64,000 nt of DNA from Cenococcum geophilum (Eukaryota): assembly GCA_050273025.1 (NCBI GenBank), contig CP158635.1, positions 6,944,001 through 7,008,000 of the forward strand, in the 5' to 3' direction. A program made the translations under genes and the position numbers. How positions within the stretch are numbered: position 1 is the first letter of the stretch; the number at the start of each line of letters is the position of its first letter. The notes under the pieces are model-generated. The model was not told where the DNA came from. It did no database searches and worked only from the letters and a program-made list of their open reading frames with translations. Positions 23,446 to 63,700 of this stretch are shown in pieces.

Positions 23446-23699
23446 TAAGGTAACTAAGGATATTAAAGAGTTTATTAACTATAAGCCAAGTGCCTTAAAA
23501 TATACGGCTATTCCTCTTAAAATAGAAGCGGGTCTACTATTAAGAGACTTATATTTAGAGGAATCTTAAAGGATTATAAAGTGGCTAGTAACTGTATAAC
23601 GTCCAAAAGAAATAAATACTAAGGAATTTAAAAGGTTTAAATAATATACGTTAAAGTTCCTAGTGCGGAATTAATAGGTCTTTTACTAGTAGTTAAAAA

Positions 23700-32184: not shown

Positions 32185-35100
32185 CTAAGTATGTTAGTAC
32201 GTTAGTACATTAGTATATCGTGTTCCTATATTCCCATATTTCTACATTTTAAATTTATAACATAACTAGCTATATAACTTAGTTACCCCTTATTTTATAG
32301 CTTAATTAGTTCTAGTGCCTCTTATACTATTTTAACTAACCTATTTATATCTCTTCTTAGTAGTTATACTACTGCTAATATAAGATCTATAATACTATTT
32401 CTCTTCTTTTTATCTTTATTTTTAAAGATATCTTCTATTTCTAAGTTGTCTATTAGAGATATAGCATTTCCATTTTTAATTTAATAACCTTTATTATTTC
32501 TAATACCTTTTATTAGATTCTCTGCGTCTAATTATTATAATTAGCTAGTAATATTTATTCTTTCACTTAGTAAAGTTATACTATTCCATTCTTATTATAT
32601 GGAGAAAAAGTTAGTATATATTATAATTGCGGCTCCATCTAGTTGCTAACCTTTTTTTATACTAAGTGTACGTAAGCAAATATATAGTTATTTTATAACG
32701 TTTAATCTATCTCTAATGTTAAATATATATATATTATAGTTCTATATAATCTTCTTATTTCTTATCTAATTTGTCGTAGGGTTTTACATATTAATAGTAG
32801 CTAAAAGACTAAAAAGTAAGCTAGCCGAGGCTCTTATTAAGATTTAACGTTGTTTTAATAAAGCGTCTTAGGCCCTAAAAGCTTAACTAGATGCTTATAC
32901 TTAATTATCTTATCTAATAAAGGTTTATAAGAAGGTGCGCTTTAAAGAGTTATATTTTATTAAGTAAAATCTCTTTATTTTTAGTTTCTTCTTAATATTA
33001 CCTAACCTATTCTCTTTTAATACTTCTATACCTTTCCTATAGAGTTTTTTAAGTTTTATAATAGCTTCTAGGTAGTCTTATTATAGCTTATCTACTTAAC
33101 TTTATACTATATTTTATTCTCAATATCTTTATAATTAATAATCTTTAAAACCTACTATTTGTCTTTCTTTTATTCTCTATATATATCTGCTTTATAAACT
33201 AGTAGCTCTATGTCTTTATACGCTGGCTTTAATATTGCGATATACTATATAGAGTAGATCTTTATCTTTACTAGTAAGTTAAGTCTATATATAACTTTTA
33301 AATTCTTAGCTATAATTTTAAATAGTTCTAGTCTAAGGTGGTTTAACTTCTTATTTAGTTATTAAGTTATAAAATTTTTATATAATAGCTACACTTTATC
33401 CCCCTCCTTAAGATCTAGTTTCATAGATCTCTTAGCATCATAGTACTTTTTTATATTTTTTATATTATTTTTACTATAAAATAAAGGTCCTTATAAAGAT
33501 TTATTAGAGTTTCTATTCTCTACTTTACTATTTTACTAGTTTTCTTTACTTATTATAGTAATAACGATATTCTAGGCTTATACCTATAATTTGCCTAAAA
33601 TAGTAGCATCTCTATGCCTTTTTATGGTATTATATTATATGCGAATTATATAACTAGTAATAACAATACCTAATTATTTTATACGTAATTAATATAATGC
33701 TTTAGATACTGCTTTAGTGTCTAATTTAATCTTTCTATTTATCTATCTGTCTGCGGATAATATATAGTAGAAGTTACTACTTGAACCTCTTATTCCGCCA
33801 AGAATACCTTCTAAAATACTGCTATAAATCTTAGATCTTAGTCTAATATAATTTTATTTAGTGCTCTATACCTTATAAATACTTCTTTAATATAGATTCT
33901 AGCTATATTCTCTACTAAGATTTTTTTATATATGCTATAAAATAGCCCTATTTAGTTAACTTGTCTACTATTACTAAAATTATATTATACTCTTATTTAG
34001 TAATAGAATCTTTTAACTTTAGTAGCTTTATAATAAAGTTCTATAATATAACCTTCTATAGTCTTTCTAGTGTCTTAATAGGCTATAGTTTTCTAGTGTC
34101 TTAATAGGCTATAATTTTCTATATAGCTTATATCTTATTAGTTTATTTTTCTAACAATTTAAATACTTCTTTATAACTTCTCTTACGAAGCTTTAGATTC
34201 CGTTAATAATATACTTCTCTTAGAGTTTTAATACTAAGCCCATAACTCCGTTATATCCTTATATTATTCCCCTATAGAAATCTTTAATAAACTCTTTTAT
34301 AATACCCTTTAGTACATATATTGCTTCTTAGTTTTTGTACTACTCTATATCTAGATTCTTAGATTATACTTTTTAAATTTTTCTAGTTTAATCGCTTTCT
34401 AGTAGCTTATGTTTTTAGGTTACTATAATTTTTGGGTAATTATATCTAATTAATCCGTTCTTATTTCTGCGTAATATTGCCCCTAATGGCTTCTTATTAT
34501 TTTATAGTTTAGCTTTTCTGCTTAGTATATCTGCTCTTACGTTTTTAATTCCCTTAGTATACTAAATCTTAAAATAGTACTTTATAAGTATCTTTATTCA
34601 TCTAATTTATTTCCAGTTAAGTTCTTTTATTATTAAAACCCCCATTAGATTCTTATAATCCATTTTAATTATAAATAGTTTCTCTATGCCTTATAAGAAT
34701 GCTCTTTATTCTCTAAATGCTATAACTATACCTAATAACTTCTTATTATAAATGTCATAGTTTAGTTCTAGTAGTATTATTTTCTAACTATAGTATACTA
34801 CTAGATGCCATACGTTCTTATACTTCTATAGTAGGTATACTTCTAGTATAAAGTCTAATATATCTATTTCTACAACCGTTTTTAATCCTAGTTAGTAGAT
34901 CTTAAGAATTAGTTTTTAGATAAACAACTTCTTAAGTTCTTAAAATAGTTTCTTTTACTCGTCTTTTTATATCTATAGTTTCTCTTTCTTTATAAGCTTT
35001 ATAAATATTTTAATGTTCTTTAACCACTATACTATAAATCTCCTATAATAGTTATAAAACTCTAAAAATAACCTTAACTGTATTACGTTCTCTAGTTTCT

Positions 35101-35606: not shown

Positions 35607-38600
35607 TATTACGGGACACCCCTATAACACCTTATACACGTCCACCTGTTTCTACTAACTTAGCAACTAGAGACCGACCACAAGATAATAATTTGCGGCA
35701 ATCTAACGGCAATCTGCTATATTCTGCTATATTCCGCCAAGTTTTACTAAATCCTGCCAAGTTCTACTAGGACTACTACTTAAATCCTATCCTACTCTGT
35801 ATACGTGTTAACTAAGCAACTAAGCTAATAATATATACCCTTTCTTCTCGTTTTCCTACCTTCTCTCCTTATATAACGTTTTAACCTTATTATATAGTTT
35901 ATATATATAGCTTAATAATATCTACCTCGTTATATATTATTGTCGCTTATACTTACTCTATAACACTACGTTACGTTAACTACTTATACTACTATTAAAA
36001 TGTAGAACGTACCTAAAGTCCCTATAACGGCAGCCAATATACTTACTATACTTAAAGAGCAGATAGTAGGTTTATAGACCCTTATAGAACAAAAGGCCTA
36101 ATACTAATAATTAATTAAAGCCCTCTAAGAAGAAATCCGCATTCTTAAGATACCTACGCTAGAACTTTAAGACCAAACGCTATCCCTAAAGGCCTATATA
36201 CGGAACGCAAGCCCTAAACTAGTAGCAGTTATTTACCTTAAACCAATTACTACACCGCAACGATCCAAAAAACTACTAGACCCCCTAGTATTCACTAATA
36301 AATAACAAAAGCTTTAGTTATTCTTAAGCTGGCTTAGAAATAAGCTAACTAGTAACGCTAACTGCTACCTAACTAAAGCTAACTAACTACTATGCCCTAA
36401 GTTAGTTAGGAGAAGAGGTAGCTAACCTTATTAAACCTCTTTAGCCAAACTTAATATAAAGCCTAGTTAGACTTCTTAAAGCTATATACGGTAATCTAAA
36501 CCACTAAGCCACCGCTTAAAGGAAGATAAATTATATAGCTTAGGAAAAGAAAAGTTTCCTAATATACTTCTCTAAATTTAACCGCTACGTAAGGGAAATA
36601 GGCTGGAATAACTCCACACTAATTAATAGCCTTATTAAATCCCTAAGCCCCAAACTAAAAACTTCCCTAATAGACGTAGATCTACTAGAAGCCCTTAACG
36701 CCTATATAAACGTTATTAATAAACGGTATAATAATATACTGCGTCTAACATTAAAGCCCGCTCCTTAATACAATATAACAGCCCTATAAGTCCCTATTAA
36801 GTTATCTTCCTAGCCTAAGCACTCTAACGCTATATGCATTAACTCTAGAACTCTAAAGTATACCCTATTAGGGTCCCTTAAATAAGAACGACGCATTAAG
36901 CTAGGCCTTTACTTTAAATACGGAAGTAAGTGTTACGGACGCTTTAAGTACAATATTACAACTACTGGAAGAGGAGTCGGAAAAAGCTAGTTGGTTAATA
37001 CAAGCACAGTCTAGGATGGAACCCGTGGAACTATATAACGAGGAATAGTAACCGAGGTCACATAATAAGCTCTATAAGATCTATAAGGAACGCCTTACGT
37101 ACCTTATGTACCTCACGTACCTCACGTACAAGAAGGATTTCATAGGAGTATAGTTGTGTATTTAAGGACCCTTAGTCCCTACTTAGATAGTTCCTTCCTT
37201 ATAGTAATTCTCAGAATATAATTAGAGTTAATCTATTAGGCAACTACTCCACCAGTTATTATTACGTTGTTAACTTCCTACAGTGCCTACACACCTAGCC
37301 CATTAACAAGTCCACCGTAGTTCTTACTACAAGGCTCCGTTACACAATCACTACCTAGTTACGGTCTTAGAAGTTAAACAATATGCTACCAAAAGCAGCT
37401 ATAACAACGCTATTAACGGCAGCAACAACCTTAGGGTTAGGTAACAATACTAATATAGCAGATACTAACTCGCAACTAGTTATAGTCGGGCAGTTATAGG
37501 CAATAGTTAATTAGTTAACAGACAATAACGTAGCACTTAAAAATAGGGTTAATAGAATAGAAGCAGCAAAGGTTAAGTTACCTTTAATTAAGCAATTCTT
37601 AGGAGAGAGATCGAAGCTCAAGGGATTCCTTACGCAAATACACTTTAAAGTCACACAGAAAGGAGCAAAATTGGCAACACCTATGGATCAAGTAGCGTAC
37701 GTAGGATTATTCCTAACAGGAAGAGCGCTTAAATGGTTCAAACCCTACCTTACAGAAATATAGAAAAATAGTATAATAACTACCAATTAGAATATATGAT
37801 ATATGTTCTTAAGCTAAACTAAATTCGTAGAATAATTAACACAAATATTCGGGGACCCGGAAGCAACAACTATAGTAGAAAGAAAGCTTTAGGACCTAAT
37901 ACAGCAAACCTTAACAATTGAATATACAACGCAGTTTTAGATATTAGCTATATAAGTTAAATAGAACAATAAGGCGCTTATAGCACAGTATAAACAAGGA
38001 CTTAAGGCTAAAGTCTAGGACGTAATTATTCTAATAGAAGATGCGGACACCCTTAGGGAATTAATAGATTAAGTAATTAAGATTAATAATAGGATCTTCC
38101 AAAGGGAATAGGCTAAAAGAGGCTAGGATAGAGTTCTACAGTTATATAAGGCGTAGAGTACGCAATAACCAAAGCTAAATTAGAAACTATAGTATAGCGT
38201 AGAGCTAATAGACCTAAGCGGTACTAAAAAAACCTATAAGAGATAGAGAAAACAACTATAAAAACCTAGAAGTTAAGGATTAAGTAATTATAGGACTAAG
38301 AAGCATAGGTTAAACCAAAAATCTTAATAGCAGAAGACGTTTAAGCGGACTGTATAGCAAAAGCAATGGTTTAAAAATAGAGCTTATATAAATTGCGGAA
38401 AACAGGGTTATTTCGCTAAAGACTATAGAAGTAGTTAGAGTTATTATGTAGTAAAGGGAACCAGACTAATAGCATATAACACATACGTATAGAGGGACGA
38501 TAGTATACTATAAGAAATAAAAGAGTGTTTAATCTAAAGTTTTATATTTTATTATAACAACGCATGCCGAATTTATAAAGACGCTAAGTATGGCGCAAGC

Positions 38601-41600
38601 TATTAGCCGTAAGAGCCAAAGTTAAGAGGACTTAAAGGAACTAAAGAGTTAGATAAAGAACAAAATCGACTCTATAAGCTGGATTAAGATATTACAGCAA
38701 TATACGGACAAAAATTAGCAATAATAATAATGGAGTTGGAGTACTTATTAATTAACAGCAATAAGGAAGAAAAAGGAACTAACTAGGGGTATCTAAACCT
38801 TAATAACGCAATAAAAGTAGAGACTAAAACCGCTATAGAGCAAGGTTTAGTAACGGGTATTATAACACTATTAAATACGGCATCTATCGCTTTATAAAAC
38901 GGAAGAAGCAATATTTAAAGACGATTAAGTAAGCAGATGACTGCTAATACTAGCTTACTACTTAATAAAGGTAAAAAGCTAAAGGCTTAAGATTCTTAAA
39001 AAGAGATAAAAAAAAATAACTAAGATTTTTAAGACAAAATAAAGCATGCTTAGGGACCTATAATAAACAATAACCGATAGAGCAGAGTAACGGCTTAGTT
39101 TAGTAATATACGAATAAGCTTAGGACGAAGTTTCCTAAAGATATAAGACTCTTAAAGTAAGATAAGTAAGATTTAAGATTCTTAAAATAAGATAAGAACA
39201 CTAGTAAAGCCTAGTTAGACTAAGGCTAGAGCATAGCTTAAGAGAGAAGCAAGCTTAGGATTAAAGAATCCAAGGGACCAAGAATTTGGAGAATAAATAA
39301 GGACACCCATAAATAAGAGGCAAGAGGCTTCGCTATAGATTAGAGAATCTATAATATAAATAGCAGTTAGGCTGGGAAACAGATATATAAACCCAGAAGA
39401 CTTACTAGTAGAATATAATATTTAGACTAAAGATCAAAAAGTTAATACCAAGATTAAGAAGTAAGAAGACTTTAAAGATCCACTTATAAGGCGAGTAGTT
39501 AAAGAGACCATAGATAAGTTTAGGGCAAGAATCCTTATATAGCAAGAAAAGAAACTAGATATAAGGTCTAGCATATTAGGTCGTACATAAGATAGAGCAC
39601 TAGTACGAAGAATTACTAATAGGCTAAAAGTAGGTACGCTAAAAGCTAAGTGGCTTACTAAACTAGAGAATAAAGAGGATTTAGGGATTCCAACTAGATT
39701 CAAAAAACGGCATATAAAAGGCTATTACGACGCAGTAATAAGAAGATACTTCCTTACGGACAAGCCATATACACTCCAGTAACTATACTAAAAGTAGTAT
39801 AGATAAAGGCACAATAACGAGTAGGAAGATTTCTATATATAGTTAGACAAGAGAGTTATCCAAGACTACCTAATTACGGAAAAAGCAATAAATTATATTA
39901 AGGGAGCCTTAATTATAATATTAAAGGATCTAGAGCAACAATTAGAGGACTAAAGAAGTAAAAGATATATCTTAGTACCTATAAATAAAGTTATAACGTT
40001 TAGATTAACACGACAGAGGTTTAAACTTAAAGATAAAGATAAGTCTAGAGTTAACCCAAAGCACCTAGTATACCATACGCTATTATAGATTATATGCGTG
40101 GACGATATATATAAAATACACAAAAATTTAAAAGAGAAAAACCGGAAATACCTTATAAGGATATATTGGGCGCTAGATAAGTAATAGTATAGAAATGCTA
40201 AGTATATACATAGCTAGCATCTAGTAGAAGTATAGAGTTAAGGGGACCTAATACTTTAACTAGGAAGATTCCTTACGGAAAAATACTTAGACGGATAATA
40301 GTGGTGGGAATGCCTAGAGAATACGTGTCTATAGTATATAAAGGACAAAAAGCAAACGAAGTATTAGCTAAAAAATAAGTCAAGTGTATAAGGATCTAGC
40401 AGCTAATAGTTAGGAAAAGTAGAGGCCTATAAAACTAGAGGGAGCTAGTAGTAGAGCCTTAGACCCTTAAAGGAATTTAAGGACAACACCTAAATTTATA
40501 AGTTAAATAGTAAGATTAGCAGTTTAAAATACTAATAGATAGTAGAGTAATAAGGAACTATATCTTACTAGCAGCAGTAAAAAGGATGGGGCTACTATAC
40601 AGATAAAAGGAGCACCTTTATCTATTAGTTATAATTTTAGGAGATCTAATAGCCTATAGAGGAGGCATTATTAATCTTAAAACAGGACCTATTTAGATAA
40701 CTATTAAAGGGAGATAAATTAAGATGTCCTTTAACATATTACTATTAGGGAATAATAAGGCAGTATTAGAAATGTCTTAGTTATAGGAATACAATCTAAG
40801 GATTAATTAGGTTATAGGTTAGGTTAATATTAGAGATACTTAACGCTGTAAAATGCAATAATAAACTAAGATAGTATAGTACCAAGTAGAGGCAACCTAT
40901 GAAGAAACAGATAAAGGACTAAGTTATATACTAAAAAGATACCATAAGTACGGTAAGAAACTATAGTCACCAGAAAGTAAGAAGCTGTTAGAGTATATAG
41001 CATAGAACTATAAAATAGAATTAGAACTAGGAATAAGTCTAAAGTTCTTTCTAATCTATAAGCTAACTAAAGAAGAGTTAAGAGCTTTAAAAGAGTTTAT
41101 CTATAAAAATCTATAAAAGGGATATATCCGACTATCGCAATTATTAGCAGGATATCTAGTACTATTTATACTAAAGAAGAATAGAAAACTAAAACTATGC
41201 ATTAACTATAGATAGTTAAATAGCATTACTAGAAAGGATAGGTATCTTTTACCCTTAATTAGCAAAATCTAGAACAGGATAGGCAATACGCAAATCTTTA
41301 TAAAGATAGATCTAAGATAGGCGTACCATTAGATTAGAATTAAGGAAGGCAACAAATAAAAAGCAGCCTTTAGGTCAAAGGAAGGACTATATAAGCCATT
41401 AGTTATATAATTCGGGCTTATAAACGCATTAGCAACGTTCTAAAAGCGTATTAACAATATATTAAGAAAATACTTGGATAAATTTATTATAGTATACCTT
41501 AATAATATCATTATCTACTTAATAAGTAAGGAAGAGCACGGAGAACACGTTAAATGGGTCTTAAAGAGACTATAGAAAAAGCAGATGCTAGTAGTAATTA

Positions 41601-42505
41601 AGAAATATAAGTTCTTTACCAAGAAGACAGATTTCGTTAGATTTATTATTAAACTAGGCCAACTTAGTATAGATCCAAAGAAAATCAAGGCTATAGTAAA
41701 TTAGCAAAAACTAGAGAACGTTATACAGCTAAAATCGTTCCTAGGGTTTTACAATTACTGTAAAAGGTTTATAGCTTAATAGTTAAAGAATATTAAGCTA
41801 TTTATAAGGTTAATAAAAAAAGAAGAACCTTAGATATAGGGAGAAGAGTAAAGGAAATTATTTAAGGAGGTTAAGGAGTTGTTTACTTAAGACTTAATCC
41901 TTAAAATCTACCAACTAAAACTAGAGACAGTGGTCGAAACGGATATATTAGACTTTACACTAGGGGCGTACTTCCTATAGAAATATAAAGATAGATAGCA
42001 CTTAGTAGCATACTATAGTTAAAAGATAATACTACTAGAACTAAACTATAACATCTATAATAAGGAGTTATTAGGTATAGTTACAGCACTTTAAAAATAG
42101 AGAGCATTCTTATAAGGCACGGAAAAGCTATTTATAGTTAAGACGGATTATAAGAACCTAACGGGGTTCCTAATAACAAAAGAACTTAATTAGAGACAGG
42201 TTAAATAGGCAAAAATGCTTACAGAATACTATTTTAAGATTTAGTACACTAAGGGCACAGATAATATACGAGTAGATACTCTAAGTAGGAAGGCTAAACT
42301 ATAGAACAATAAGAAGCCATTAGGGGCTTTACTATAAAAAAATATAGATGGATTAATTAAATACAACTATCCGAAAATTATAGTAATAAAAGAAACCAGT
42401 TAAACCTATAAGGCACTAAAGAGTATATAGTTATAAAAGATCTAAGACGCATAGGCAGAGAATCTAGACTTAGAGCAGTACGAAAACCAAAAAGTAATAT
42501 ATATA

Positions 42506-43503
42506 GTAGTAATTCTTTGATTAACGTCTGATACGGATCCTACTGGCCCACGCAGACTACTCCGTCACAGGGGGGAAAACTTGTGTATTTACAGGAAGAA
42601 AACCCCTGCAGTTGGGTTGGGGGAGGAAAAACCCTATGAGCTACCTCAGTCGGATGAAAAACCCCGAATTACCATGTTTGTACGTAGCAGCGGCCCTGCG
42701 GGCCTACAGCACGTCCTCCTCCTTAGATGTTTTGAACTCCTTGGGAACCACTGCTTCCTTCTCCAGCTTATCCAAAGCTAGGGTTCACTACGTCCTAGCT
42801 AGGCCTTGCCGATCGATCGCCGTGTACTTATTGTTTTCTCCCGTATCTTAACCGTCCCCTATGTGCTATCTCTTGTTGACCATTGCCGTATACGCCTTGC
42901 CTCCTTCCCCCCTAGAGCCATTAAAGGCGTAAGGGGGATTCATCCGTTCTAACCACCGTAATACTAATAAGCGAGCGGGATATTGTGTATTTGGGTATCT
43001 TTTGTGCCTAGGCCCCAGCTAGGCCCTCTCTAAGGGTCACCACTCCGTCAAAAGGAGATAGGGAAAACCGTGGGTCGCAATCCAGGCTGCTAGGTAGCAT
43101 TCGGTAGTTGACGGCGAGTGACCGCATACTCCGCGGGCGATTGCCCTGGGGGTTAGGAGGGGCCGTATACTTGCTCGTTTGTGTTCGTTCGCGATCGTTC
43201 GTTCGTCGATGCTTTCAATTGGGGGTTAGGGGACGTTGGATTCCATCTCGTATCCGCGAGGATTACACAGGGTTGAATAAGAGCGTAGCAGTTGTCTACT
43301 ATGAAGGGGGTACCGTCAGTAGTGGTTTTCGAGATCTCACCATCCCATGTGAAAACTTTTCACTACCCCCCACAACATTTTGACCACCACCACGACCCCT
43401 ACCCGCAGCTGTGCGACGTCTCTGCGTTGGCTCTGCTGAGTCCAAAGACCAGCAGGTTCGTAGGCCTCACCACGTATAGGTGCAGAGTCCGATTTCGAGG
43501 ACT
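42506..43503 (-). mobile_element. Ribozyme-headed SINE-like element, family Y copy 2 (little RIP)
   Basis: 14-bp TSD AAGTAATATATATA (42492-505, 43504-17), TAC-repeat tail, absent from the paralogous site in C2 (~60315). Confidence 0.93.
43420..43503 (-). ncRNA. HDV-like ribozyme
   Basis: P1 AGTCCTC/GAGGCCT (one mismatch), P2 CTCTGC/GCAGAG, P3 ACC/GGT, L3 TATACGT with AC partner, P4 CTGCTG/CAGCAG, J4/2 GCCAAC. Confidence 0.82.
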
Positions 43504-44515
43504 AAGTAATATATATACTAAGAAATATCGCAAGAGAGTTTATTAAGTTATTCTATAAGGAACTAACTTAAGGACATAATAGAGCTATGGGCTTAGTGTT
43601 AAGACTCTAAAAGGAGTACATTATTAATAAAATCTAGGGACTAGTAAGGCAAGTTATAAAAGAATATCTAGATTACTAAAGAAATAAACTAGCAAGATAT
43701 AAGCTATATAAAGAGCTATAACCAGTTAAAATACCAGAAAGACCATAAGAGGTTATATTATAGGACTTTATTATAAAGTTACTAAAATTAAGAGATCCTA
43801 TTACTAAATAAGATTATAATGTAATTTTAGTAATAGTAAACAAGCTAATAAAGTGGGGATACTTTATAGCATGCACAGAAGAAATATTAGCGGAAGATAT
43901 CGCTAGAATCTATATTAAAGAAGTATTCGCAAAACATAGAGCACTAAGTAAGATTATATTAGATAGAGATCTAAGATTTATAGCAGCATTTTAGAAGGTA
44001 TTCTTGGCAGAATAAGGAGTTTAAGCAGCAACTTTTACCGCATATTATCCGCAGACAGACGGTTAAACGGAAAGATTAAATTAGACACTAAAATAGTATC
44101 TAAGGCACTATATTAATTATACACAGAATAATTAGGTATTATTATTACTAGTTACACAGTTCGTATACAATGCAATACCTTAAGAAGGAATAGGAACATT
44201 ACTATTTAAGGCGAATTACGGGTACGAACTAAGAATATCATTATCGCTATAATAAGCGAAGAAAATAAGTAGCACAGCTAAGTAAAGAATGGAGATACTA
44301 ATAAATCTTTATATAAACCTTATAAAGATAGTAAAGGTAGTATAATAGAAAATAAAAAAGTACTATAACGCTAAGAGATCTAAGGGACCAAATCTTAAGG
44401 AGGGAGATAAAGTATAGCTACTACATAAAAATTTTAAAAGTTAACAACTAAGTAAGAAGTTAGACTATGTTAAGCTAGGACCTTTTAAAATTAAGAAAAG
44501 GATTTTATTGGTTAT

Positions 44516-44724
44516 TGTCGGAATATATGGACAGAAGTTACGTGGTTACGTGTTGTTGACGTGTCGTCGTCGTGTCTTTGATTAGTTATCCTTATGGTGA
44601 CTAATCAACCCCCTACTTAGGCACCGCGATCCTTACGATCCTCTGCAAAAACAATCATATACAACCTAACAAGACTACGATTACGACATTACGTGATATT
44701 AGCCTTAGGTCATGTGTTCCGACA
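44516..44724. mobile_element. Solo LTR (209 bp)
   Basis: TGTCGGAA...TTCCGACA, TSD GTTAT, absent in C2. Confidence 0.92.
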
Positions 44725-45059
44725 GTTATATTTAAGTTAAACCTACTAGCCAAAATAAAGATCTACCCTATATAGTATATTGCAATACTAGAGCCAGCAT
44801 ATAGAAATATTAAGCCACCAGTCTATAAAGCAGATATATATAGAGGACAGGAAGAAGATAAATAGCAAGTTTTAAAAATCATTAGTTATAAAAACGTTAA
44901 TAATAAAACATAATATAAAGAAAAGTGGATAGGCTACAATAAGACTACCTAGAAACCACTAGAAAATTTAAAAAATACTATAGAAAAGGTATAGGAGTAT
45001 TAGAAGAAAAAAGGTTAGGCAGCATTAATAAAGAAAAATTACCAAAGAACAAACCACCT

Positions 45060-45659
45060 AAAGGGGACCTAGGAGGAACAATTGCCGAACTACTTAGAGT
45101 TATTTCCTTCTCTATTAAAAGAGAATCCGTTTTTTTATCGCCAAGTTCCTATAAACCTTACTCTACTAGTTTCTACTCCTTAGAACGGACCTTCTCACGA
45201 ACTTTCTTAAGACGAAGAAGACGAGCATAAGCGTTTTAACAAGCCTTAAGGGTATAACGCTCCTTATTATAAATACGAGCCAAACGGAGCTTATTATTAT
45301 ACTAAAGTTAATAAATCTCGGCCAGCGCCTCTAACAGTTTATTATTAAGCTTTATAGTAGTAGATTAAACACAAGACCCTATAACAAATTACTTAGGGAA
45401 CTTAAAGACTACTAAGAGTAATAGGACGCGTATACTTAGCATCAGAAATAGAACAAATATCATAAGAGGACCGCATATTCGCTCGCGTATACTTAGTATA
45501 AAAGGACGGTTGTCGGTTAACGGGCAACGCAATTACAACATAAACTAACCCCTTTTTCGCGCAACGAGAACAGGAAGGCATAATCTCACCTAGCGATAGT
45601 ATAACAGCTACAGTACGAGACCAACGCTTAGCTAAGGTAGAAGAAGGAGCCTTAGGCAT
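45060..45659 (-). pseudogene. Antisense accessory gene of Gypsy family C: Cys-rich Zn(II)2Cys6-like domain plus coiled coil (RIPped)
   Basis: ORF 45402-45671 reads MPKAPSS...CSRCAKKGLVY..FYTKYTRANMRSSY, with Tyr at RIP-convertible Cys positions; homologous frames at ~61660-62232(-), ~32503-32980(+) and ~23880-24484(-). End approximate. Confidence 0.65.
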
Positions 45660-46746
45660 AATAAGTAACAATATTAACTAAATTAATTAGATAGATATTA
45701 TACCTCTAGTAAACGACCTAGAGATGCTAGGTATCTTTAAGGACGAAGATAGAAAGGAGGGAGATAGTGTTACGGACGCTTTAAGTACAATGTTATAACT
45801 ACTGGGAGAGGAGTCGGAAGAAGCTAGTTAGTTAATATAAGCACGGTCCAGGATGGAACCCATAGAACTATATAATGAGGAATAGTAACTAAGGTTATAT
45901 AATAAGCTCTATAAGATCTATAAGGAACGCCTTACGTACCTTATATACCTTACGTACCTTACGTATAAAAAGGATTTCATAGGAGTATAGTTGTGTATTT
46001 AAGGACCCTTAGTCCCTACCTAGATAGTTCCTTCCTTATAGTAATTCTTAGAATACAATTGGAGTTAATCTATTAGGCAACCACTCCACTAGTTATTATT
46101 ACGTTGTTAACTTCCTGCAGCACCTATATACCTAGCCCATTAACGAGTCTACCGCAGCCCCTACTACAAGGCTCCGTTACAGTAAGGCTTATATCTTAAA
46201 ATACTACTCTGTCTTTATGCCCTAATACGATTTATAAACGGCTAATACTAGCAGCCGTTTACCGTATTAATCCGCTTACCGTCCCTAATCCTTACTTAGT
46301 TCTAGCCCCATATTTAATAAATACCACTTATAAAGATAAAGCTATAACCGACGTTCTATAGGAACCCCTTCCCGCTCGCTACTAAAAGGTGCGTCCTAGA
46401 GTTAAGTTACTTTTTAGGACAGCTATATTATAGGATCTTATTAAATGCCTTAGATATTATAAACCCTAACTCTTAGGATTGTGATATAACTATTAACTAC
46501 CGTCTTTAGTAGAAAGGTTAATAGGCTAATACTTAAGTCCTAATTAATATAGGAGCTAGCAGCATAGGATTTATTAATAAGATCTTTGCGTAAGATAATA
46601 GGTTTACCCTAATACCCCTTAACCAGCATATTAATATATTTGGATTTAATAGCAAACGTACCATTTTAGGCCGTATTACCTATGTAGTAGCCCTAAGACT
46701 CTAATACCTAAACTATAAAGAACTGATTAAGCTTTTTGTTACTACC

Positions 46747-49700
46747 TGTAACGGCGCTATCGCACGTTACCTGCCAAATTCTGCCATATTCTGCCGACCT
46801 GCGATTAGCCCGCCTAAAGCTAGCGCCTTGGCGGCTCACCCTATATATTTATTTACATCGGTCCTAGCGACCCCTTTTCCTTCTCTTTAGCTTAGTATCT
46901 TGGTAATACAGTATTCGTTCAAGCTTTGGTTTAGAGGCATTTGTTTAAGCCGTGACATTATACTAAGCTCTCCCTACCTTGCCTAAGAAGGCCTCAATAA
47001 TATCCCACCCCAAAGAAACTTCGTCTGCAACGACGCATTAACGCGCTATACTTAGACACCAAAATAACTCTACATTGCCTAGGAAGGCCTAAATAATATC
47101 CCACCTTATAAGCTAGATAGGACTGGACCTGTACCCCCGGAATTAAAACTAAAGCGTATAATACTAACGAACCTTAGGAAGCTAACAATGGCACCTAAAG
47201 CAAGCTTATCTAAGAGAGCTGCCTCTACCTAAGAGGAACCTAAGATCTAATTAGGATTAGAAATCGAAGACAATAATAATATTGTAGATATACGCGAGCA
47301 GATTCGCGCCCTCGTAGCTAGCTAGGAAGCCGATCGTCTTAAAGCGAGAAATATATAAGAGACCCTATAAAAGATCCTAAAAAGCCTTGCGGCCCTATAA
47401 AATAGCCTAGCTTCCCCTTTTTAAAGCCCTAGTCGACCTATTTACTCTACTAAATGCGATATACTAGGGAGTACGGATATAATAACGAAGCAATTAAAGT
47501 CCGTTAAGCTCCTTAACCCCCTACTACTATCTAACGGGATAGACCCTACCTTTAAGAATTAGAGGATTTAAGTATAAGGAAAGCTCCGCGTTAACTATAA
47601 CTATTTCCTTTCCAAAGAAGCTAAAATGCTCTACCTCTTTAGTTAAACCACTAGGGACGCCTAACGGCACCTTTAAGCCAAGTTTGAGGACGACTCCCCT
47701 ATCCAATTTATATCTATTAACGAGATAATACGGCACTTAGCGGCTATTTACGTTAACCTAAATAAAGTATGGGATGCCCGTTATAACTATAATCACCTAA
47801 TAATAAAACTAAACCAACCCTTTGCCGAATTCTAAACTTAATTCCTATACCTTATAGGAAAAGGCCAGGTTCCCTTTAAGAACTACTGATTAGACCTGTA
47901 TGATAAGCTAATAATCCAGCTATAAGAAAAGATCGCTGTAACCTTAAATGACCTACTAACCCACAAAAGACTCGCAGCTTGTTGCCTATTATTAGACTTA
48001 AAACTAAAGCGGATTAACGCCCGCCCTAATTAGTAGAAGCGACTCCGTAATAATCGGAACTCGCTAGCTATACCTATAGAAGCTAGAGTAGGAAGATAAG
48101 TTACGACTGCTCTTATACTAAAGGCGGTTATAACTACGTACTAGTAAGCCTTACCCAACTAGCTACGTACCACGCTATTAACTAGTATTCGCTATAATAC
48201 TTTAATTAACCCTGCCTTGGCTATGTGCTTTAATTATAATAAGTAAGGTTACTTTGCCTTATCCTGCCCGGAGCTAAAGGATATAGGTAATATTAAGGAG
48301 ATGGAGGAAGGAGAAACGTCCGATAAGTCGGGAAAAGAAGAACCCTAGGGAAAGACTCCCCCCTAGGGTACCCTATTAATCTTAAAGAGATTAATCTTAG
48401 TTAGTTAATGGGTGGAAAGTATTTTATAGTTTTATGTATAGTATCTTAAAATAGATATAGAGTTAATATAACCACCCTTATTAACACTAGAGTAAATGGC
48501 TTCGCCTTTATAAATACTACCTATATAAATAATGTTGCCAAGTTTCTAAATGTAGAAGCTATCTAACTAGAAAAGCCTGTCTAGGTAAAGGGCTATAACG
48601 GCTAAGCCGGTTGGCCCGTTACCTATATCTTAAAGTTATATATTGCTCTTAACGGACAACGCTAATACGGCATCCCCTTTTATATTTTAGACCTAGGGTC
48701 CCACGATATAATCCTTAGACGAAAATAGATGTCCTATTTTAATATTTGGTTAAATGTATAAAAAAGACGGTTTATTTGGCCGGAGGATAGACTAAGGTTA
48801 CCCTTCTTTATTAGGGAGATCTGAACTGACCGTAAGACACTAGCCGTAAGGGCTAACCCTACCTACTAGTAGGATGTCTGGGCCCGTGACCTAGCCTTTA
48901 CCTAAGAGGACGCCCGCCGCGAAGCTGGAAAGAACTTTATACTAATAAAGATACTCTCCCGAAGCGCTATATTTAAAGAGGACTCTATATACGGAAGCGG
49001 GATAGATAATAACGTAGATAACGTCTAAATTGCATAGATTTAACTATTATGGAAAAGAACGTATTAATAGGATATAAGGGATAACCTCCGAAAGATGCAA
49101 TAGGAGCTAAAAGAAGTAATAATAACGCTAGTACCCTGGAAGTCCCTAAAGTTATATACACCCCTATTATTAGTTAACCCCCCTACCGTAAACATCGCCG
49201 CAATTAGCGCTGTAGCGTTCTACTTTAATATATACTGGAAGGATAATAAGGTCTTTATAACGAGCCTATATAAGATTAACCGAATTATTAATAATAGAGA
49301 GGAAAGGCTAGATAAGGAAACTAATGAGGAACTAGTCAAACGCCTTCTTCCTACTATTTATATAGGCTATAAGGATGCATTCTTAAAGGCGGCCTTAGAT
49401 AAGTTACCCCCCTACCAGATATATAATTATAAGATTTAATTAGAGGCCTATAACTCGCTAGGCTATAGCCCCCTTTACTATTAATTAACGGATAAGCTAA
49501 AAGTAATAAAGTAGTATTTGATTAATAACCTGGATAAAGGGTTTATTAAGCCAAGTTAAGCCCCTTTTACTTCCCCTATTCTGTTTATAAAAAAGCCTAA
49601 TAGAGGCCTTCGTTTTTATATTGATTATTAAAAGCTAAACGCTATTACTTAAAAGGACTGGTATCCTATTCCTTTAATTAACGAGACCCTTATACGTCTA

Positions 49701-52700
49701 AGCTAGGTAAAGATCTTTACTAAACTTAATATCCGCCAAGCTTTCCACTGAATTAGGATAGACCCTATATCCGAAGATTTAACAACGTTCCGTACCCGCT
49801 ATGGTTCCTATAAATATAAAGTTCTTCCTTTTAGACTAATAAACGGACCGGCTACGTACCAAAGGTATATAAATAACGTTCTTTTTAATTACCTTAACGA
49901 ATTCTGCACGGTATACTTAGACGATATTCTTATATACTTAGATAACGAACTTAAGTATTAAGTTTATATTAAGAAGGTCCTAGAGAGACTATAGAACGCG
50001 GGCTTATAAGTCAATATTAAGAAATGCGAGTTTAGGGTAAAATGTATAAAATACCTTGGGTTTATTATAACTATGGAAGGAATTAAGGTTAACCCTAAGA
50101 AGGTAGAGGCAATCCGTAACTAGAAGCCCCCTTATATAGTAAAAGGAATCTAGTCCTTCCTTAGTTTTTATAATTTCTACCGCTAGTTTATCCGTAACTA
50201 TAGAATTATAGCAAAACCTCTTATATAACTAACTAGGAAGGACACGCCTTTTATCTTTAATAATAGCTATATAGAGGCCTTTAAAGAGGTAAAGGATTGG
50301 CTTATTTCTTTTCTAATCCTTTATTACTATAACCCGGACCTTAAATTAATGCTAGAAACAGACGCCTTTAATAGGGTTGTAGCGGGAATCCTATTACAGT
50401 TATATCTAGACAGCGAATGGTACCCTATAGCTTTCTTCTTAAAGATAATAGACCCGGCTAAGTGTAACTACAAAGTATATAATAAAGAAATGCTAGCTAT
50501 TATTTAATTACTCTCCTAATGGCGTGTAGAGCTTAAAGGTACGAACTCCCGGATTAAGATATATATAGATTATAAAGCCCTAGAATACTTTATAATTATA
50601 AAGTAGCTTATAGGGCGATAAGCCTAGTAGGCCGAAATACTCTCCTAATTCTTCTTTACGATTATATATTGTTCTAGCAAGTAAAACTCTAAGGCTAATG
50701 CCCTAACCCGAAGAGAACAAGATATAGGACCCTAGGATAAGCTAAAGACCCAATATCGGACGCGCGCCCTCCTTTATCTAGAACAGCTCGACCTATAGAT
50801 CCTTAAGGAGCTAGACTCCTAGTAAAACGAGCTAGCACTAATAGAGGAGTCCTTAGATAAGCTAATAGGGCTAATTAACCGCCTCCTAACTATAAACCGC
50901 ACGGCTAATGCCCTAAGGGCCCTCCGTAAACAAGCCGCGAAAGGAGACCCCGATTTTAAGATGGAGGAAGGATTGCTCCTATACCAGGAGCGGCTTATAG
51001 TCCCTAATGTTAATAATCTACAGACTAAACTAATCCGCGAAGCTTATTGCTAAGTCTCTACGGCATACCCTAGCAAGAACAAGACCCGTAAAATTATTAA
51101 CTGCCGCTACTATTAGCCGAGAATGGTTGCGGATATTAATTAATATATATAGAACTGCGAAGACTGCTGGAGAGCTATAATCCTACGGGATAAGACCCTA
51201 GGACTACTTAAGCCACTCCCGATACTAGAGCGCCCTTAGCAGTATATCTTTATAGACTTCTATAAACTACCTAGGGACCGTGACGGATACGATATAGTTA
51301 TAGTTATAGTTAACCGCTTTAGTAAACGCCCGTTTTTAATTCCATATTATAAGAATATCGATGCCAAAGAGGCAGCCTAGCTATATATCTATTACGTCTA
51401 CCGAATCTACAGACTACTAGATACTATTATATCCGATTGCGGGCCGTAGTTTATATTGGCCTTCTGGAATAAGTTTACCTAGATCCTAGGCATTAAGCTA
51501 AAGCTTTCTACGGCTTATTACCCCTAGATAGACGGTTAGACAGAGATTGTAAATTAGTACCTAGACTAGAGGCTTAGGCCCTTTATTAACTATTTCTAGG
51601 ATAACTAGTCTAAACTACTACCCTTAATAGACTACGCGCAAGCAACCCTACCCTATAACTCCACAGGGTTTGCTCTAATTTAGCTGGAAATAGGATACTT
51701 ACCCCGTATAAGCTTTAACTAAAAAAGGCTAGAAGAACCCTAAACTATATAAGAGAAGCTATCCTATGCTAAGGCCTAATAGTACGCTAAATGATTAGAG
51801 GAGGCCTAGACGGTAGCCCGCGAGAACCTAGAAAAAGCTTAGAGGTTAATGGAATAGTAGGCGAACAAACACCGTCGAGAGCCCAATTTTACCCCTGGCG
51901 ATATGGTCTAGGTTATAATAAGAAATTAGAGGACTGAACGACCTAGCTATAAGCTAGACTACTAGATAGTAGGACCGTATAAGGTTCTTAAGAAGATAGG
52001 CAACTTGTATAAGATAAAGCTCCCAGACTTAATTAGGGTTTACCCTATCTTTTCGCCAGATAAGTTACGGAAAGCTATAAACGACCTATTGCCTAGATAA
52101 AAGAACGAGCCTTCCCTACTAGTTTAAGTAAACGGTAATAACAAATAGGAGGTTAACAAAATACTGGCCTATAAGATAGTACGGGGAGTGCTAAAATACC
52201 GTGTTTAATAGAAGGGCTATAATCCTGACCTAACCTAGTACCCTATATGGAACTTTATAGGCTGCCCCTAGAAGCTTAAAGAATTCTATAACTAATACCC
52301 TAATGCGCCTAGACCCCCAAAGTACCTAGACAAATAGTTGGAATACTGGCATAATAAAGACGATAAGTTACCGAAAGAATATAGGGACAAAAACACCCTA
52401 AAGCCCTAATACAGCTGTCTGCTAAATTCTACCATATTCTGCCGTTTTCTGCTAGTACCGTAAAATTTTAGATGTCTAGGAACTTTAACCGCCGGTTAAA
52501 GTTGTCTAATTAGTTAGATCCGTGCTAAGACTTTTAGCGGCTACTCTTTTTGGCCTAGTGCTTCCACTTAGCCTACAATCGCCTTTTGTACTTAGTTAGG
52601 ACGGACTCGTGTCCCCTTTTATCTCCTTATCTTATATTTTTATAATCCTACATTTATAAGCCTAGTGCTACCCTATTTTTTTTAACTAAGCCTAAGGGCA

Positions 52701-52936
52701 GGCTTTCTTTTAAAGAGGGGGGTAATGTAACGGCGCTATCGCACGTTACCTGCCAAATTCTGCCATATTCTGCCGACCTGCGATTAGCCCGCCTAAAGCT
52801 AGCGCCTTGGCGGCTTACCCTATATATTTGTTTACATCGGTCCTGGCGACCCCTTTTCCTTCTCTTTAGCTTAGTATCTTGGTAATATAGCATTCGTTCA
52901 AGCTTCGGTTTAGAGGCATTTGTTTAAGCCGTAACA
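46747..52936 (+). mobile_element. Full-length Gypsy (chromovirus) family B, copy 1, RIPped
   Basis: 211-bp LTRs at 46747-46957 and 52726-52936, TSD CTACC, PPT AAAGAGGGGGG, YLDD at ~49914, integrase HP.TDG.TE, chromodomain at ~52140-52290. Confidence 0.96.
48330..48369 (+). promoter_or_regulatory. Putative -1 gag/pol ribosomal frameshift signal
   Basis: GGGAAAA slippery heptamer followed 5 nt later by stem ACCCTAGGG/CCCTAGGGT, at the gag-protease boundary. Confidence 0.6.
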
Positions 52937-54795
52937 CTACCCTAGGTTACCTAGTAGTTCTTAAATAGCCCTAAATAAAGCTATATAAAGTAGTTATTAA
53001 TTAAAATAACCTTAAGCTTCTATTTACTGCTCTATACTATAAGCAGGAATGCTCTATAATATACCGTCCTAACCCTAAACTAAAATCTAGGAAATCTACT
53101 AAAATCTATTAGCTTAAGATTTTTACTAATATCTACCCTACGCCTAAGGAATTTACCAGATTCCACTAACCTAGGAATTCCACTAATATCTATTAAGGAT
53201 TTAAAAATTCTACTAAACCCTATAATTTAATCCTAAGCACTATACCGCCTAAAGCTAGGTAGAAGCTTAAGCTTACTACGCGAAGATATTAAAAGGACTA
53301 GTATTCTACTATAAAAAGGATACTTAAAGAACCTAAACTTAAATCTAATACTAACTCTATACCTAACACCGAACCTAAAATTAAGTAGGGAACTATATAA
53401 GAAACTATGGACGACTAGAGCCCGCTTAACGCCCTAGACATCTATATAATTAGAGCTACCCCGCTAGCGCGACTCGCTAAAAGACCCGAATATAGGATCT
53501 TTACTGTCACTATAGCTAATATTAAAAAGGCCTTAGCACTAAAGAAGCACACTGACCCCGCTATAAAGGTACTAGTAGAGTACTATAACCGCCTAGAGGT
53601 ATTCTTATAGAAGGATGTCGATAAGCTACCGGAATACCAACTATACAATTATAAGATTGTACTTAAAGAAGGAAAGCAGCCTAGATTTAAACCCCTATAC
53701 GAAATGTTTTAAAATAAACTCTAAGTATTATAGAAGTACCTAAACAAGAACCTAAGTAAAGGATTTATTAGAGTAAGCTCTTTACCAGTAGCCATACCAG
53801 TAATCTTTATTAAGAAACTAGACGGTGGACTATGCTTCTATATAGACTACTAAGCTCTTAACGCAGTTACTGTTAAAAACTAATATCTAATCCCGTTAAT
53901 ATAAGAGACGCTAAACCGATTAAGTAAAGCTCGCTTCTATATAAAGCTTAATATTATCTCTATATTTAACCGCCTCCGTATTATAAAAGGAGATAAATAG
54001 CTTACTGCATTTTGTACCCAATATAGATTATTTAAGTACTTAGTAATACCCTTTAGCCTTATAAACGCTCCAAGCTCGTTTTAATATTATATAAATAACA
54101 CCCTACGTCCCTACCTAGATATCTTCTATACTGCTTATATTAACGACATCTTAATATATAGTAATAACCTGACCGAATACTAAAAATATATTAATCTTGT
54201 CCTATAAGCCCTATACGGAGCTAGTCTATAATTAGATATAGATAAATACAAGTTTTATAAAACGGAAGTCCTATACCTTAGACTTCTTATTTCTATAAAT
54301 AGTATATAAATAGACCTAAAGAAGGTTAAAGTAATTATAAACTAGTAAGAACCTAAGAATATTAAGGTCGTAAGAGCCTATATAGGATTTACCAACTTCT
54401 ACTAATGGTTTATTAATAACTTCTCCGCCCTAGTTTACTCCTTATAGCTTTAACCTAAAAGGATAAAGCCTTTATCTTTAATAAGGAATATAAGAAGGCC
54501 ATTACTTACCTAAAGGTTATATTTACTACCGCACCTATACTCTAACACTTTAACCTAAACTAAATAAGTGTTATAAAAGCTAATTTATTTAATTACGTTA
54601 CTAAAGGTATCCTATCTTAATATAATAAGAATAGAGTATTATACCCTATAGTATACTTCTTAAAATAACTAAGCCTAGTTAAATGTAACTATAAGATCTA
54701 TAATAAAGAATTTCTAGCTATTTTAAATAATAGTAACCTAAACTAGAAGGCGCCGGGTTTTTAATTAAGGTCCTTAGCGACTATAAGAATCTATA

Positions 54796-60700: not shown

Positions 60701-63700
60701 AGAAGATATCGCTAGAATCTATATTAAAGAAGTATTCGCAAGATATAAAGCACTAAGCAAGATTATATTGGATAAAGATTTAAGATTCGTAACAGTATTC
60801 TAGGAGGTATTCTTAGCGGAATAAGGAGTTAGAGTAGTAACTTCTACCGTATATTACCCGCAAACGGATAGTTAAACGGAAAGACTAAATTAGACGCTAG
60901 AATAGTATCTAAGATATTATATTAATTATATACAGAATAATTAGGTATTACTATTACCAATTATATAGTTTATATATAACGCAACACCATAAAAAGGAAT
61001 AGGTATATTACTATTTAAGGCAAATTACGGGTATAAGCTAAAAACATCATTGTTACTACAATAAGTAAAGAAAATAAGTAGTACAGCTAAAGAAAGGATA
61101 AAGATACTAATAAATCTTTATATAGACCTTATAGAATTAGTAAAAAAGGTATAAAAGAAAATAAAAAGGTACTATAACGCTAAGAGATCTAAGGGACCAG
61201 ATTTTAAGGAGTGAGATATAGTATAGCTACTATATAAAAATTTTAAGAGTTAATAACTAAGCAAGAAGTTGGACCACGTTAGACTAGGACCTTTTAAAAT
61301 TATATAGAGAATTTTACTAGTTACGTTTAAGTTAACCTACTAGCTAAGATAAAGATCTACCCTATACAGCATATCGCGATGCTAGAGCTAGTATATAGGA
61401 ATATTAAGCTACCAATTTATAAAGAAGACACGTATAGAGGATAAGAAGAAGATAAATAATAAGTTTTAAGGATTATTAGTTATAAGGACGTTAACAATAA
61501 AATATAGTATAAAGTTAGGTAAATAGGCTATGATAAAACTACCTAGGAACTACTATAGAATTTAAAGAATACTATAGGAAAGGTATAGGAATATTAGAAG
61601 AAAATAGGTTAGGTAATATTAAGAAAGAGCCTAAAATAAAAGGATTAGTTAAAGGTAATAGATAAGCTAGATTATCTAAAGGATCCACCACCAGCGTATA
61701 AACTGTTTCCGCCTCTTCTTAATTAGAATCCTTTTTAGCCTCTTTAGCCTTAAGTTTGGATAGACCTTACTCTACTAAATAAAGCTCTTTTAAGCGTACC
61801 TTTTTACGCACTTTTACTAAACGGCTTAGGCGAGTATAAGTATCTAGTTAAGCTTTTAGAGCCTAAGACGCCTTATTAGAATAACGCTAAACCTTAGCAA
61901 GGGCCTTAACCAGCTTACTCTTTAGTCTTTTAGCCGCTACTAACACGCGTAACCCTAAAGGAGATTAAATAGGGAACTAGACGGTTATAGAGAATAATAA
62001 GACGTATATACTTAGCGTTAGAGATAGATTAAACGTTATAGGACAACCGCATATTCGCTCGAGTATACTTAGCATAAAAAGAAGGTTAGCAACTAAATGG
62101 AGCTGCGATTGTAATATATACTAACTTCTTCTCTATATAACAAGAATAGAACGGTATAACTTTACTAAGTAACAGAATAAACGTCACCAGCTAGTTATAA
62201 TAATTAGACGCAGAAGATTTAATAAGAGGCATTAGAAATAATAAAGGTTATTAAATTAAAGACGGGAATGCTATACCTCTAATAAACGACTTAGAGATAG
62301 GAGATATCTTTAAAGACAAAGATAAAGAGGAGGGGGATGGTGTTACGGACCTTATATTGGTAGTAGTGCGACTACTAAGGGCAGATATAAATGGGTTAGT
62401 TAAGATAGTATAGGAGGAGCTAGAACTAATTAAGCTATAAAATAAAAGGTAGCTAAGTTATATAGCTAGTTATGTTATAAGTTTAGAACGTAGGAACGTA
62501 GGAATATGGGAACGCGACGTACTAACGTACTAACGTACCGACGTACTGAACTCTTTATTATAGAGAGGAGTTATATATTTAAGGACACACGGTCTTTATA
62601 GATAGTTTCTCTTCCTTATAGTAAATCTTAGAATATAATTAGAGTTAATCTGTTAGGCAACTACTCCACTAGTTATGTTTACGTTGTTAACTATTCTATA
62701 CCTACATACCCAGCCCATTAACAAGTCCACCGTAGTATTTCCTACAAGGCTTCGTTATAGTAAAATGGCTTATCCTTAGTAACTATAATCCCCTTTATAC
62801 TTCTAGCGAGGAGACATATTTAAAAAGGAGGAAGGTGTTATAGTCTCTTATACTAAGTCTTTATAGTAGCTTTAGTAAGCACGCCTTTTTTATAAAGGCG
62901 CGATTATATAGTAGCTAGAGCTATTATAAAAGGAACCTCTATAGGGTTATCTACTAGTATAAACGTATTAAGTCCGTTAATATATAGGATATAGGCTATT
63001 TCTGCCTAATCTTTAATAAAGTTAATTATATTATAGAGACCGTTAAAGAAGGCTCCCTTCTCTTATAGAACACTAAGCGAGATAATATTTATAAAGAAGT
63101 TAGGATAGTAATATACTTTGGTAAATATAATTATATAGGCCAAGTAGTTAGTTTGGGCGACTATAAGCTTAACTAATCTAACGCCAATGGCCTTTATTAG
63201 GCCTCCTCCTGTCTAAATTTAGATAGGTTTAATTTTCTTATACTAGATAAACTTCTTAATATTATTGCCTATATAAATATTTAACTATTAGCTATCTAGG
63301 AGTTCTTAATATTTATTCCTAAAGCTATAGCTGCTAGCCCAATAACCTATATAGTAAAGATTGATCTAGTTACCAAATTAGTAGCTTAAAAGGGGCGATT
63401 AGATGTCCCCTTAGAGGCCTTATTTATATTTAAGGCTACTTTATTACCTAAGCGCGGAGGTCGTTTCTCTCTAGGTCTCCACTATTCGGGTCTTAAGTAA
63501 GCATACTTTATTTAGCAGCCTTCCTCGCCACCTAGATAGCCTAGCTTATACTATTTATATTTATTTAAAGCATCCTTAATAGGGCCCTAATTACCTAATA
63601 AGGCACCACGGCCAGCTCCCCCGCCTCCGCCGCGACTATTGCTGCGACTATAACTATTGCCACGTCCTTAACCGGGGTTACCTAGTGGCTTATTAACTAA

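Follow-up and report, generated by a model that had tools for sequence, protein, structure and literature searches.

The locus treated here raises the question whether the strand opposite to the pol gene of a fungal retrotransposon holds a gene of its own and, if so, what kind of protein this gene encoded. It lies in a 64,000-nt stretch of Cenococcum geophilum DNA (CP158635.1, 6,944,001–7,008,000; we call this whole stretch the window, and all coordinates below are positions in it), which belongs to a genome of 178 Mb in 7 contigs. Nested long terminal repeat (LTR) retrotransposon DNA fills nearly the whole window and bears a strong signature of repeat-induced point mutation (RIP; TpA/ApT 1.3–2.25 except at 7–9 kb), which is a mark of filamentous ascomycetes. 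One of these elements, the Ty3/Gypsy chromovirus copy C1, carries on its minus strand an accessory gene of its lineage, which has two exons and is antisense to pol; in C1 this gene has been destroyed by RIP and yields no protein. The original prediction had placed a conserved antisense frame between the chromodomain and the polypurine tract (PPT), and such a frame is indeed present in all four window copies on the strand opposite to pol. We regard it as almost certain that it represents a real gene under selection.

Layout, decay and constraint of the antisense gene

The C1 gene runs on the minus strand from 45659 to 44978, comprises 208 codons in two exons and is broken by RIP. Exon 1 (45434–45659, 226 nt) specifies a basic N-terminal helix and a six-cysteine cluster with the codons for Cys1 to Cys6 at 45572, 45563, 45542, 45500, 45491 and 45464. 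A 55-nt phase 1 intron with the donor AT (45379–45433) separates it from exon 2 (44978–45378, 401 nt), which contains a predicted long helix, possibly of coiled-coil type, as had been expected beyond a gap after the cluster, followed by a Pro/Ser/aromatic tail and the stop codon at 44980–44978; nine in-frame RIP stops interrupt the interior of this exon. The extent originally proposed (45060–45659) stands on the start side, whereas its low end does not, as the frame continues for 80 nt to the stop codon. The gene thereby reaches 41 nt into the end of pol, whose own stop codon lies at 45016–45018. Two natural six-cysteine proteins match the remains: exon 1 shares 66% identity with P0001 and 59% with P0002, exon 2 shares 60% with P0001 over 70 residues and 38% with P0002 over 137 residues reaching its C-terminus, which coincides with the C1 gene stop. 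The 108 nt from the 3′ LTR to the start codon (45660–45767, minus strand) are the likely 5′ leader, and their opposite strand carries the PPT.

The second gene copy (61572–62232, minus strand) is of another subfamily than C1, the third (23783–24484, minus strand) has a 42-nt in-frame insertion in exon 2, and the fourth (32503–33042, plus strand, the element lying on the minus strand) has a deletion in its tail. C1 differs in subfamily from all three, with a transversion distance of 13% in exon 1 and a different LTR. The start codon column reads ATG in C1 (45659) and the second copy (62232) and ATA in the third (24484) and fourth (32503). Across the genome, the antisense gene family occurs at 150 places at least, and the pol tail with the chromodomain is matched as well at 122 of 125 loci carrying the gene.

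The cysteine columns record the action of RIP. Among the 24 cysteine codons of the four window copies, three are TGY, 20 are TAT and one is CAT. The survivors are those originally named, Cys1 (45572) and Cys2 (45563) in C1 and the intact Cys5 codon of the fourth copy (32667); the claim that all other columns read TAT applies to 20 of 21, the deviating CAT being Cys1 of the copy at about 32.6 kb. Thirty further copies from the same genome, chosen by DNA likeness, have TGY at Cys1 to Cys6 in 6, 10, 4, 9, 16 and 7 cases, and otherwise TAY except for one TGA. In a set of 120 loci, 117 have both exons, and these show TGY in 57, 92, 82, 56, 95 and 72 copies, counts that are raised by the choice of 87 of the loci by protein likeness. 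Judged by the codons, the mixture of TGY and TAY is the pattern expected from G>A at TpG. P0001 and P0002 possess six real cysteines, whose spacing of x2-x6-x13-x2-x8 matches the one that had been reconstructed, C-x2-C-x6-C-x13-C-x2-C-x8-C. Tyrosine rather than cysteine at these positions had been named as an outcome that would speak against the gene; TGY was found in all six columns instead.

As RIP makes only transitions, we counted transversions (purine/pyrimidine changes, by parsimony on a tree built by the unweighted pair group method with arithmetic mean; the p-values assume independent columns). In the 117 copies with both exons, each codon position is represented by 120 columns, and the number of transversion steps per column is 1.38 at position 1, 0.91 at position 2 and 4.23 at position 3 (p 8e-19). 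At third positions, fourfold-type residues have accumulated 5.14 steps compared to 2.11 for twofold ones (p 1e-5). Since the alignments of these copies lean on protein, the test was repeated with 33 copies chosen and aligned by DNA only. The values at the three positions were 0.51, 0.13 and 0.72 for exon 1 (p 5e-6), 0.28, 0.30 and 0.95 for the exon 2 helix and 0.04, 0.11 and 0.24 for the pol tail, which served as a control. No third-position excess was found in this set when exon 2 was read in the unspliced phase (p 0.99), and no codon-position excess was apparent in the intron (p 0.37), the leader (p 0.14) or the tail (p 0.54). The phase of the third-position transversions shifts at the intron, matching the two-exon frame. 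A lack of purifying selection, the other outcome named as adverse, was hence not observed, transversions being concentrated at third positions in both exons. Taken together, the effect of degeneracy, the jump in phase and the existence of natural proteins point to the antisense frame as the coding one.

The gap between the exons had been described as AT-rich, less conserved and probably an intron. It is less constrained, with transversion distances among the three closer window copies of 0.11–0.20 compared to 0.01–0.02 for exon 1, while the AT-richness did not hold up, the GC content of 0.33 being barely below that of exon 2 (0.35; exon 1, 0.43). Its nature as an intron is borne out by GT-AG type ends, the phase change and proteins that cross the junction. 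In the 117 copies the intron starts with GT in 22 and AT in 95 and ends with TAG in 107 and TAA in nine. Its length is 55 nt in 109 copies and 127–130 nt in five, always 1 modulo 3; the ends were placed via extrapolation from the protein alignment, and three odd lengths may be artefacts. Four loci (L031, L032, L036 and L096) represent a subfamily with a longer intron of about 127–130 nt at the same position. Among 207 natural proteins, eight span the predicted junction and have the expected Trp there; 65 continue into intron sequence. Four proteins of the spliced form (P0204–P0207, on contigs of 1.0–1.6 kb) fall into one 90% cluster with P0022 and P0203, whose gene calls begin inside the intron and one of which lies on a 120-kb contig. 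The simplest reading of these sequences is that they are spliced and genomic forms of one gene, intronless DNA copies being the alternative. The junction-crossing protein P0025 has RIP-like residue changes, which hints at a partly RIPed copy that somewhere still yields spliced transcripts. Four RNA runs mapped to C1 gave no joint at the intron and almost no cover of the exons.

The protein family and its distance from Zn2Cys6 factors

A search of cluster representatives returned 172 proteins at E≤0.001, among which full-length relatives measure 156–237 residues at identities of 24–35%; the six cysteines persist in relatives of 24–37% identity. Named relatives come from the lichen fungi Circinaria calcarea and Icmadophila ericetorum and from the Dothideomycete Aulographum hederae, the last being labelled 'Zn(2)-C6 fungal-type' in UniRef. 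The Atlas neighbours are Ascomycota clusters with 62–122 members, the top one (score 0.92) bearing the same label. The family has a common build of a basic N-terminal helix, Met-Pro, six cysteines, a long helix and an acidic aromatic tail; the last 45 residues are net negative in 17 of 19 relatives, the exceptions being P0001, which is cut short, and P0167. AlphaFold2 modelled P0001 from 35 sequences with a mean predicted local distance difference test (pLDDT) of 91.7 and a predicted template modelling score (pTM) of 0.60, and placed helices at residues 13–27, 35–40, 59–63 and 77–151, the second and third being short helices of the cluster. Intact relatives are thus predicted to encode a six-cysteine, long-helix protein of about 200 residues, and the six cysteines probably form a zinc-binding cluster.

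The spacing of Zn2Cys6 clusters ranges over C-x2-C-x6-C-x5-12-C-x2-C-x6-8-C. Most of the 19 intact relatives fit this range exactly or within one residue, the third gap of the C1 subfamily being x13, so the Gal4-type spacing that had been claimed stands; canonical membership does not. RhaR provides an example of the canonical spacing (PMC4245848). The family shares with Gal4-type factors (PF00172) six cysteines in the arrangement C-x2-C-x6(-8)-C-x8(-13)-C-x2-C-x6(-9)-C and the acidic tail; two short helices in the cluster and a downstream helix, possibly of dimer type, are predicted as well. Weak profile matches to Hap1, Put3, Leu3, Lac9, Gal4 and Rsc3 (E 0.02–9), Zn_clus matches at E≤0.1 for three of 20 members and an hhalign value of 53% to host Zn2Cys6 clusters point in the same direction; the profile, fold and hhalign signals all lean weakly towards a Gal4-like protein, none being significant alone.

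Several results weigh against this assignment. The best Pfam Zn_clus score (P0001) is 13.6 bits and lies below the cut-off of 21, and the Foldseek matches, 12 of 14 of which are Zn2Cys6 factors including Hap1 and Gal4, are not significant (E 1.8–9.1). We further compared residues of the 19 intact members with 28 host clusters of the same genome, a canonical-leaning sample drawn from the top 30 Pfam scorers. A lysine or arginine before Cys3 occurs in two of the 19 members versus all 28 hosts, K/R at the Lys18 position in four of 19 versus 25 of 28, and a proline within two residues of Cys4 in none of 19 versus 28 of 28. K17/K18 and the proline between Cys3 and Cys4 are described as hallmarks of Zn2Cys6 domains (PMC4245848), and Lys18 as the sole side chain with which Gal4 reads CGG, replaced by His or Asn in Put3 and Pho7 (PMC6265462). 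When K, H and N are counted together, nine of the 19 members qualify; glycine occupies the position in seven of 19 and in C1, and the other three window copies have lysine. Given the missing hallmark residues, classing the family with the canonical Zn2Cys6 factors is not warranted; it is at best zinc-cluster-regulator-like. It also differs from Gal4-type factors in its longer Cys3–Cys4 loop, its extra N-terminal helix, the missing middle homology region, its length of about 200 residues and its location on an element.

A second point of comparison is DUF3716 (PF12511), which the Zymoseptoria REP9 genes REP9-1 and REP9-2 exhibit as a transposon-borne six-cysteine domain after a helix-Gly-x-Pro motif (PMC8232023). 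That domain differs in its DNA transposon context and in an x8 gap between Cys2 and Cys3 (PMC8232023), and its profile matches the antisense family below the cut-off (one of 20 members at E 0.005; hhalign 15.6%). DUF3716 occurs at 31 places in the C. geophilum genome, mostly with RIP stops, and is hence repeat-borne here; its helix-Gly-Pro-CxxC start resembles that of the antisense family. From this likeness it would seem that cysteine domains carried by transposons form a broader group.

Element C1 and the surrounding window

C1 is a complete Gypsy insertion with both LTRs ending in TG...CA, a PPT and a 5-bp target-site duplication, the same 5-mer being found at 36926–36930 on the left flank (plus strand) and at 46182–46186 on the right. 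On the plus strand, the 5′ LTR (36931–37344, 414 bp, 91% identity with the 3′ LTR) is followed by the capsid part of gag (37380–38300; with X in place of stops, Ty3_capsid matches at E 1e-6 and Retrotrans_gag at E 4e-5) and by a pol remnant with reverse transcriptase and RNase H (41168–42229; RVT_1 E 4.8e-16, RT_RNaseH E 3.4e-18). The integrase region (43542–44519) shows only a weak SH3_Tf2-1 match (E 0.052) and was assigned by position and by what we take to be the integrase motif; two nested insertions (about 42377–43550 and 44515–44723, limits from self-BLAST breaks) break it. With integrase so placed, the domain order of gag, reverse transcriptase, RNase H and integrase fits a Ty3/Gypsy chromovirus. 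The end of pol (44725–45018) holds the chromodomain at about 44866–45009, which gave no Pfam match in C1 itself, the pol tail being too damaged; in less damaged relatives the corresponding stretch contains Chromo (PF00385) in four of four cases, three of them above the cut-off. The PPT (45751–45764) is a purine run 3 nt ahead of the TG of the 3′ LTR (45768–46181), the likely seat of the antisense promoter. The two LTRs differ at 37 of 414 positions, every one a transition; hence RIP struck C1 before any transversion accumulated.

About 60 nt upstream of the PPT (45700–45767) are well conserved between the subfamilies, beyond what a PPT needs; they may act as an element at the RNA level or belong to the antisense leader. 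In both C1 LTRs a 9-nt unit built around ACGT is repeated four times in tandem (45930–45965 and 37093–37129); other copies have 8-nt versions of it. TACGT/ACGTA occurs 373 times in related LTRs versus 94 expected from base shuffling, and the repeat array varies between subfamilies; it is a possible factor-binding array. An imperfect palindrome (45844–45861, LTR positions 77–94), which reads CGG-N12-CCG in many related LTRs, was considered as a binding site of the antisense protein and rejected, its conservation being no better than that of the rest of the LTR; no other candidate for such a site emerged.

Elsewhere in the window, only two stop-free frames reach 120 codons, both remote from the antisense gene and located in a 2-kb low-RIP stretch with a GC content of 0.46–0.47. 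The frame at 7214–8962 (plus strand) matches Pol_BBD (E 2e-10) and that at 8741–9307 (minus strand) weakly matches RVT_2 (E 1e-4); they are a Copia-type remnant largely spared by RIP and perhaps rearranged. Another LTR element occurs in two copies of opposite orientation (46747–52939 and 17178–23446), whose LTRs measure only about 210 bp and are 96% and 88% alike, and long arrays of 12-nt tandem repeats at 1290–2070 and 6435–6620 probably lie within another repeat family.

Possible function and known systems

Of the original proposal, the accessory gene, the cysteines hidden by RIP, the intron, the long helix and purifying selection are supported, whereas a DNA-binding or anti-silencing function and expression from the 3′ LTR are conjectural. 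We lean slightly towards the view that the antisense product is small and dimeric and regulates transcription of its own element, taken together with the gene, intron and relatives described above and the following steps. A promoter in the 3′ LTR, which we infer because the start codon lies 108 nt from the LTR edge, would make an antisense mRNA that is then spliced; the intron would persist through retrotransposition, as the genomic RNA that is packaged comes from the opposite strand, on which no splice sites appear. The six cysteines would adopt a Gal4-like fold around two zinc ions, and the 75-residue helix would dimerize the protein. The basic N-terminal helix and the cluster would hold the dimer on LTR DNA or chromatin, probably not via the canonical contact of Lys18 with CGG, and the acidic, aromatic tail would recruit the host transcription machinery and so set transcription of the element. 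For the core statement taken by itself, that the product regulates transcription of its own element, we see even chances. A broader version is possible, if doubtful: the whole ascomycete chromovirus lineage would encode its own transcription factor. Derived from a captured and remodelled Zn2Cys6 protein and translated from a spliced antisense mRNA, this factor would bind the LTR in a mode other than CGG recognition and activate the element or shield it from host silencing. If true, this would be a fungal counterpart of retroviral accessory regulators and a first function for genes of the brtn type known from the Boty element, and DUF3716 domains would share the theme.

The closest competitor, which we consider rather unlikely, is an adaptor or decoy instead of a sequence-specific activator, with the cluster binding protein or chromatin and the long helix pairing with coiled-coil proteins of the host. 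Silencing would thereby be dampened or the element tuned, in the manner of retroviral antisense accessory proteins such as HBZ (see below). The loss of the canonical DNA-reading residues and of the proline fits such a role, as do a 75-residue helix that far exceeds the dimer helix in solved Zn2Cys6 chains (57–89 residues) and a helix-Gly-Pro motif before the cluster that resembles DUF3716 (PMC8232023). On the other hand, the family profile resembles host Zn2Cys6 clusters (53%) more than DUF3716 (16%), and the order of cluster, helix and acidic tail is that of an activator. A step after transcription, such as RNA export, particle assembly or the nuclear import or tethering of the integration complex, with the cluster binding RNA or integrase, appears improbable. 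Such roles have been proposed for plant antisense frames (PMC7264820) and the non-canonical cluster would suit them; however, the protein shows no likeness to nucleocapsid knuckles and no match to viral structures (BFVD, E≤0.001), and its acidic aromatic tail would fit transcription better.

We think it very unlikely that the antisense RNA is what matters, as a source of self-limiting double-stranded RNA, or that a piece of host DNA was captured and is carried along with no benefit to the element. An antisense transcript would share 41 nt with the pol tail and an RNA role is allowed for in a review (PMC7264820), but amino-acid constraint acts on both exons, the six cysteines persist in relatives at 24–37% identity, and the gene is found in all four window copies and at 150 or more genomic places. 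Chance, whether RIP created the Tyr/Cys codons in DNA that codes for nothing or a sense frame casts its shadow, has a negligible probability in our view: TAT is common in RIPed DNA, and a sense frame with coinciding third positions would show the same periodicity, yet open natural proteins with six cysteines exist, the degeneracy effect follows the antisense residues and the phase jumps exactly at a minus-strand GT-AG intron.

Antisense accessory genes are known from retroviruses: HBZ of human T-cell leukemia virus type 1 (HTLV-1) is spliced, driven from the 3′ LTR and encodes a zipper protein regulating the element. It belongs to a human retrovirus, its product is a basic leucine zipper protein and not a zinc cluster protein, and there is no homology, so the comparison is an analogy only. 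Among plant Ty3/Gypsy elements, the antisense frames termed aORF-3R (Grande gene23, RIRE2, Retand and PvRetro13) resemble the present gene in place, orientation, presence in most copies, gag-pol-like conservation and a function that is not known (PMC7264820), and the Grande antisense protein is nuclear and has its own promoter (PMC7264820). The C. geophilum gene likewise lies between pol and the 3′ LTR on the opposite strand, is present in 4/4 window copies and with both exons at 117 of 120 loci, which were chosen for the gene, and shows coding conservation. The plant products differ in being SMC-like, in carrying Transposase_28 or no domain instead of a six-cysteine cluster, and no sequence relation to the present gene is apparent (PMC7264820).

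The nearest parallel is the antisense gene brtn of Boty, for which the same placement in the element has been published (mentions in PMC7264820, PMC8365987, PMC4227169 and PMC5987419). A Monilinia transcript matches truncated Pol plus BRTN (PMC5987419), which fits a gene abutting the pol tail, a comparison made by description and not by sequence; no BRTN sequence was found in two supplements of PMC8365987 or among the named protein matches. The mentions in these four papers assign brtn neither a zinc cluster nor a function. In the literature searched (including PMC3248453, mostly without subscription papers and Repbase-type annotations), we found no report of a zinc-cluster antisense open reading frame in fungal Gypsy elements. 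The surprise is limited, since the window copy is dead and the arrangement has been published for Boty. For years, LTR retrotransposons have been known to carry additional antisense genes to which no function is assigned (PMC7264820); a regulator-like build of six-cysteine cluster, long helix and acidic tail makes function testable with one small natural protein. Element genes that bear the label 'Zn(2)-C6' may also cause the number of host transcription factors to be overestimated. Compared with these systems, the C. geophilum gene is an antisense accessory gene of a known kind, and what appears new is its six-cysteine, non-canonical cluster variant with a plausible role as a regulator.
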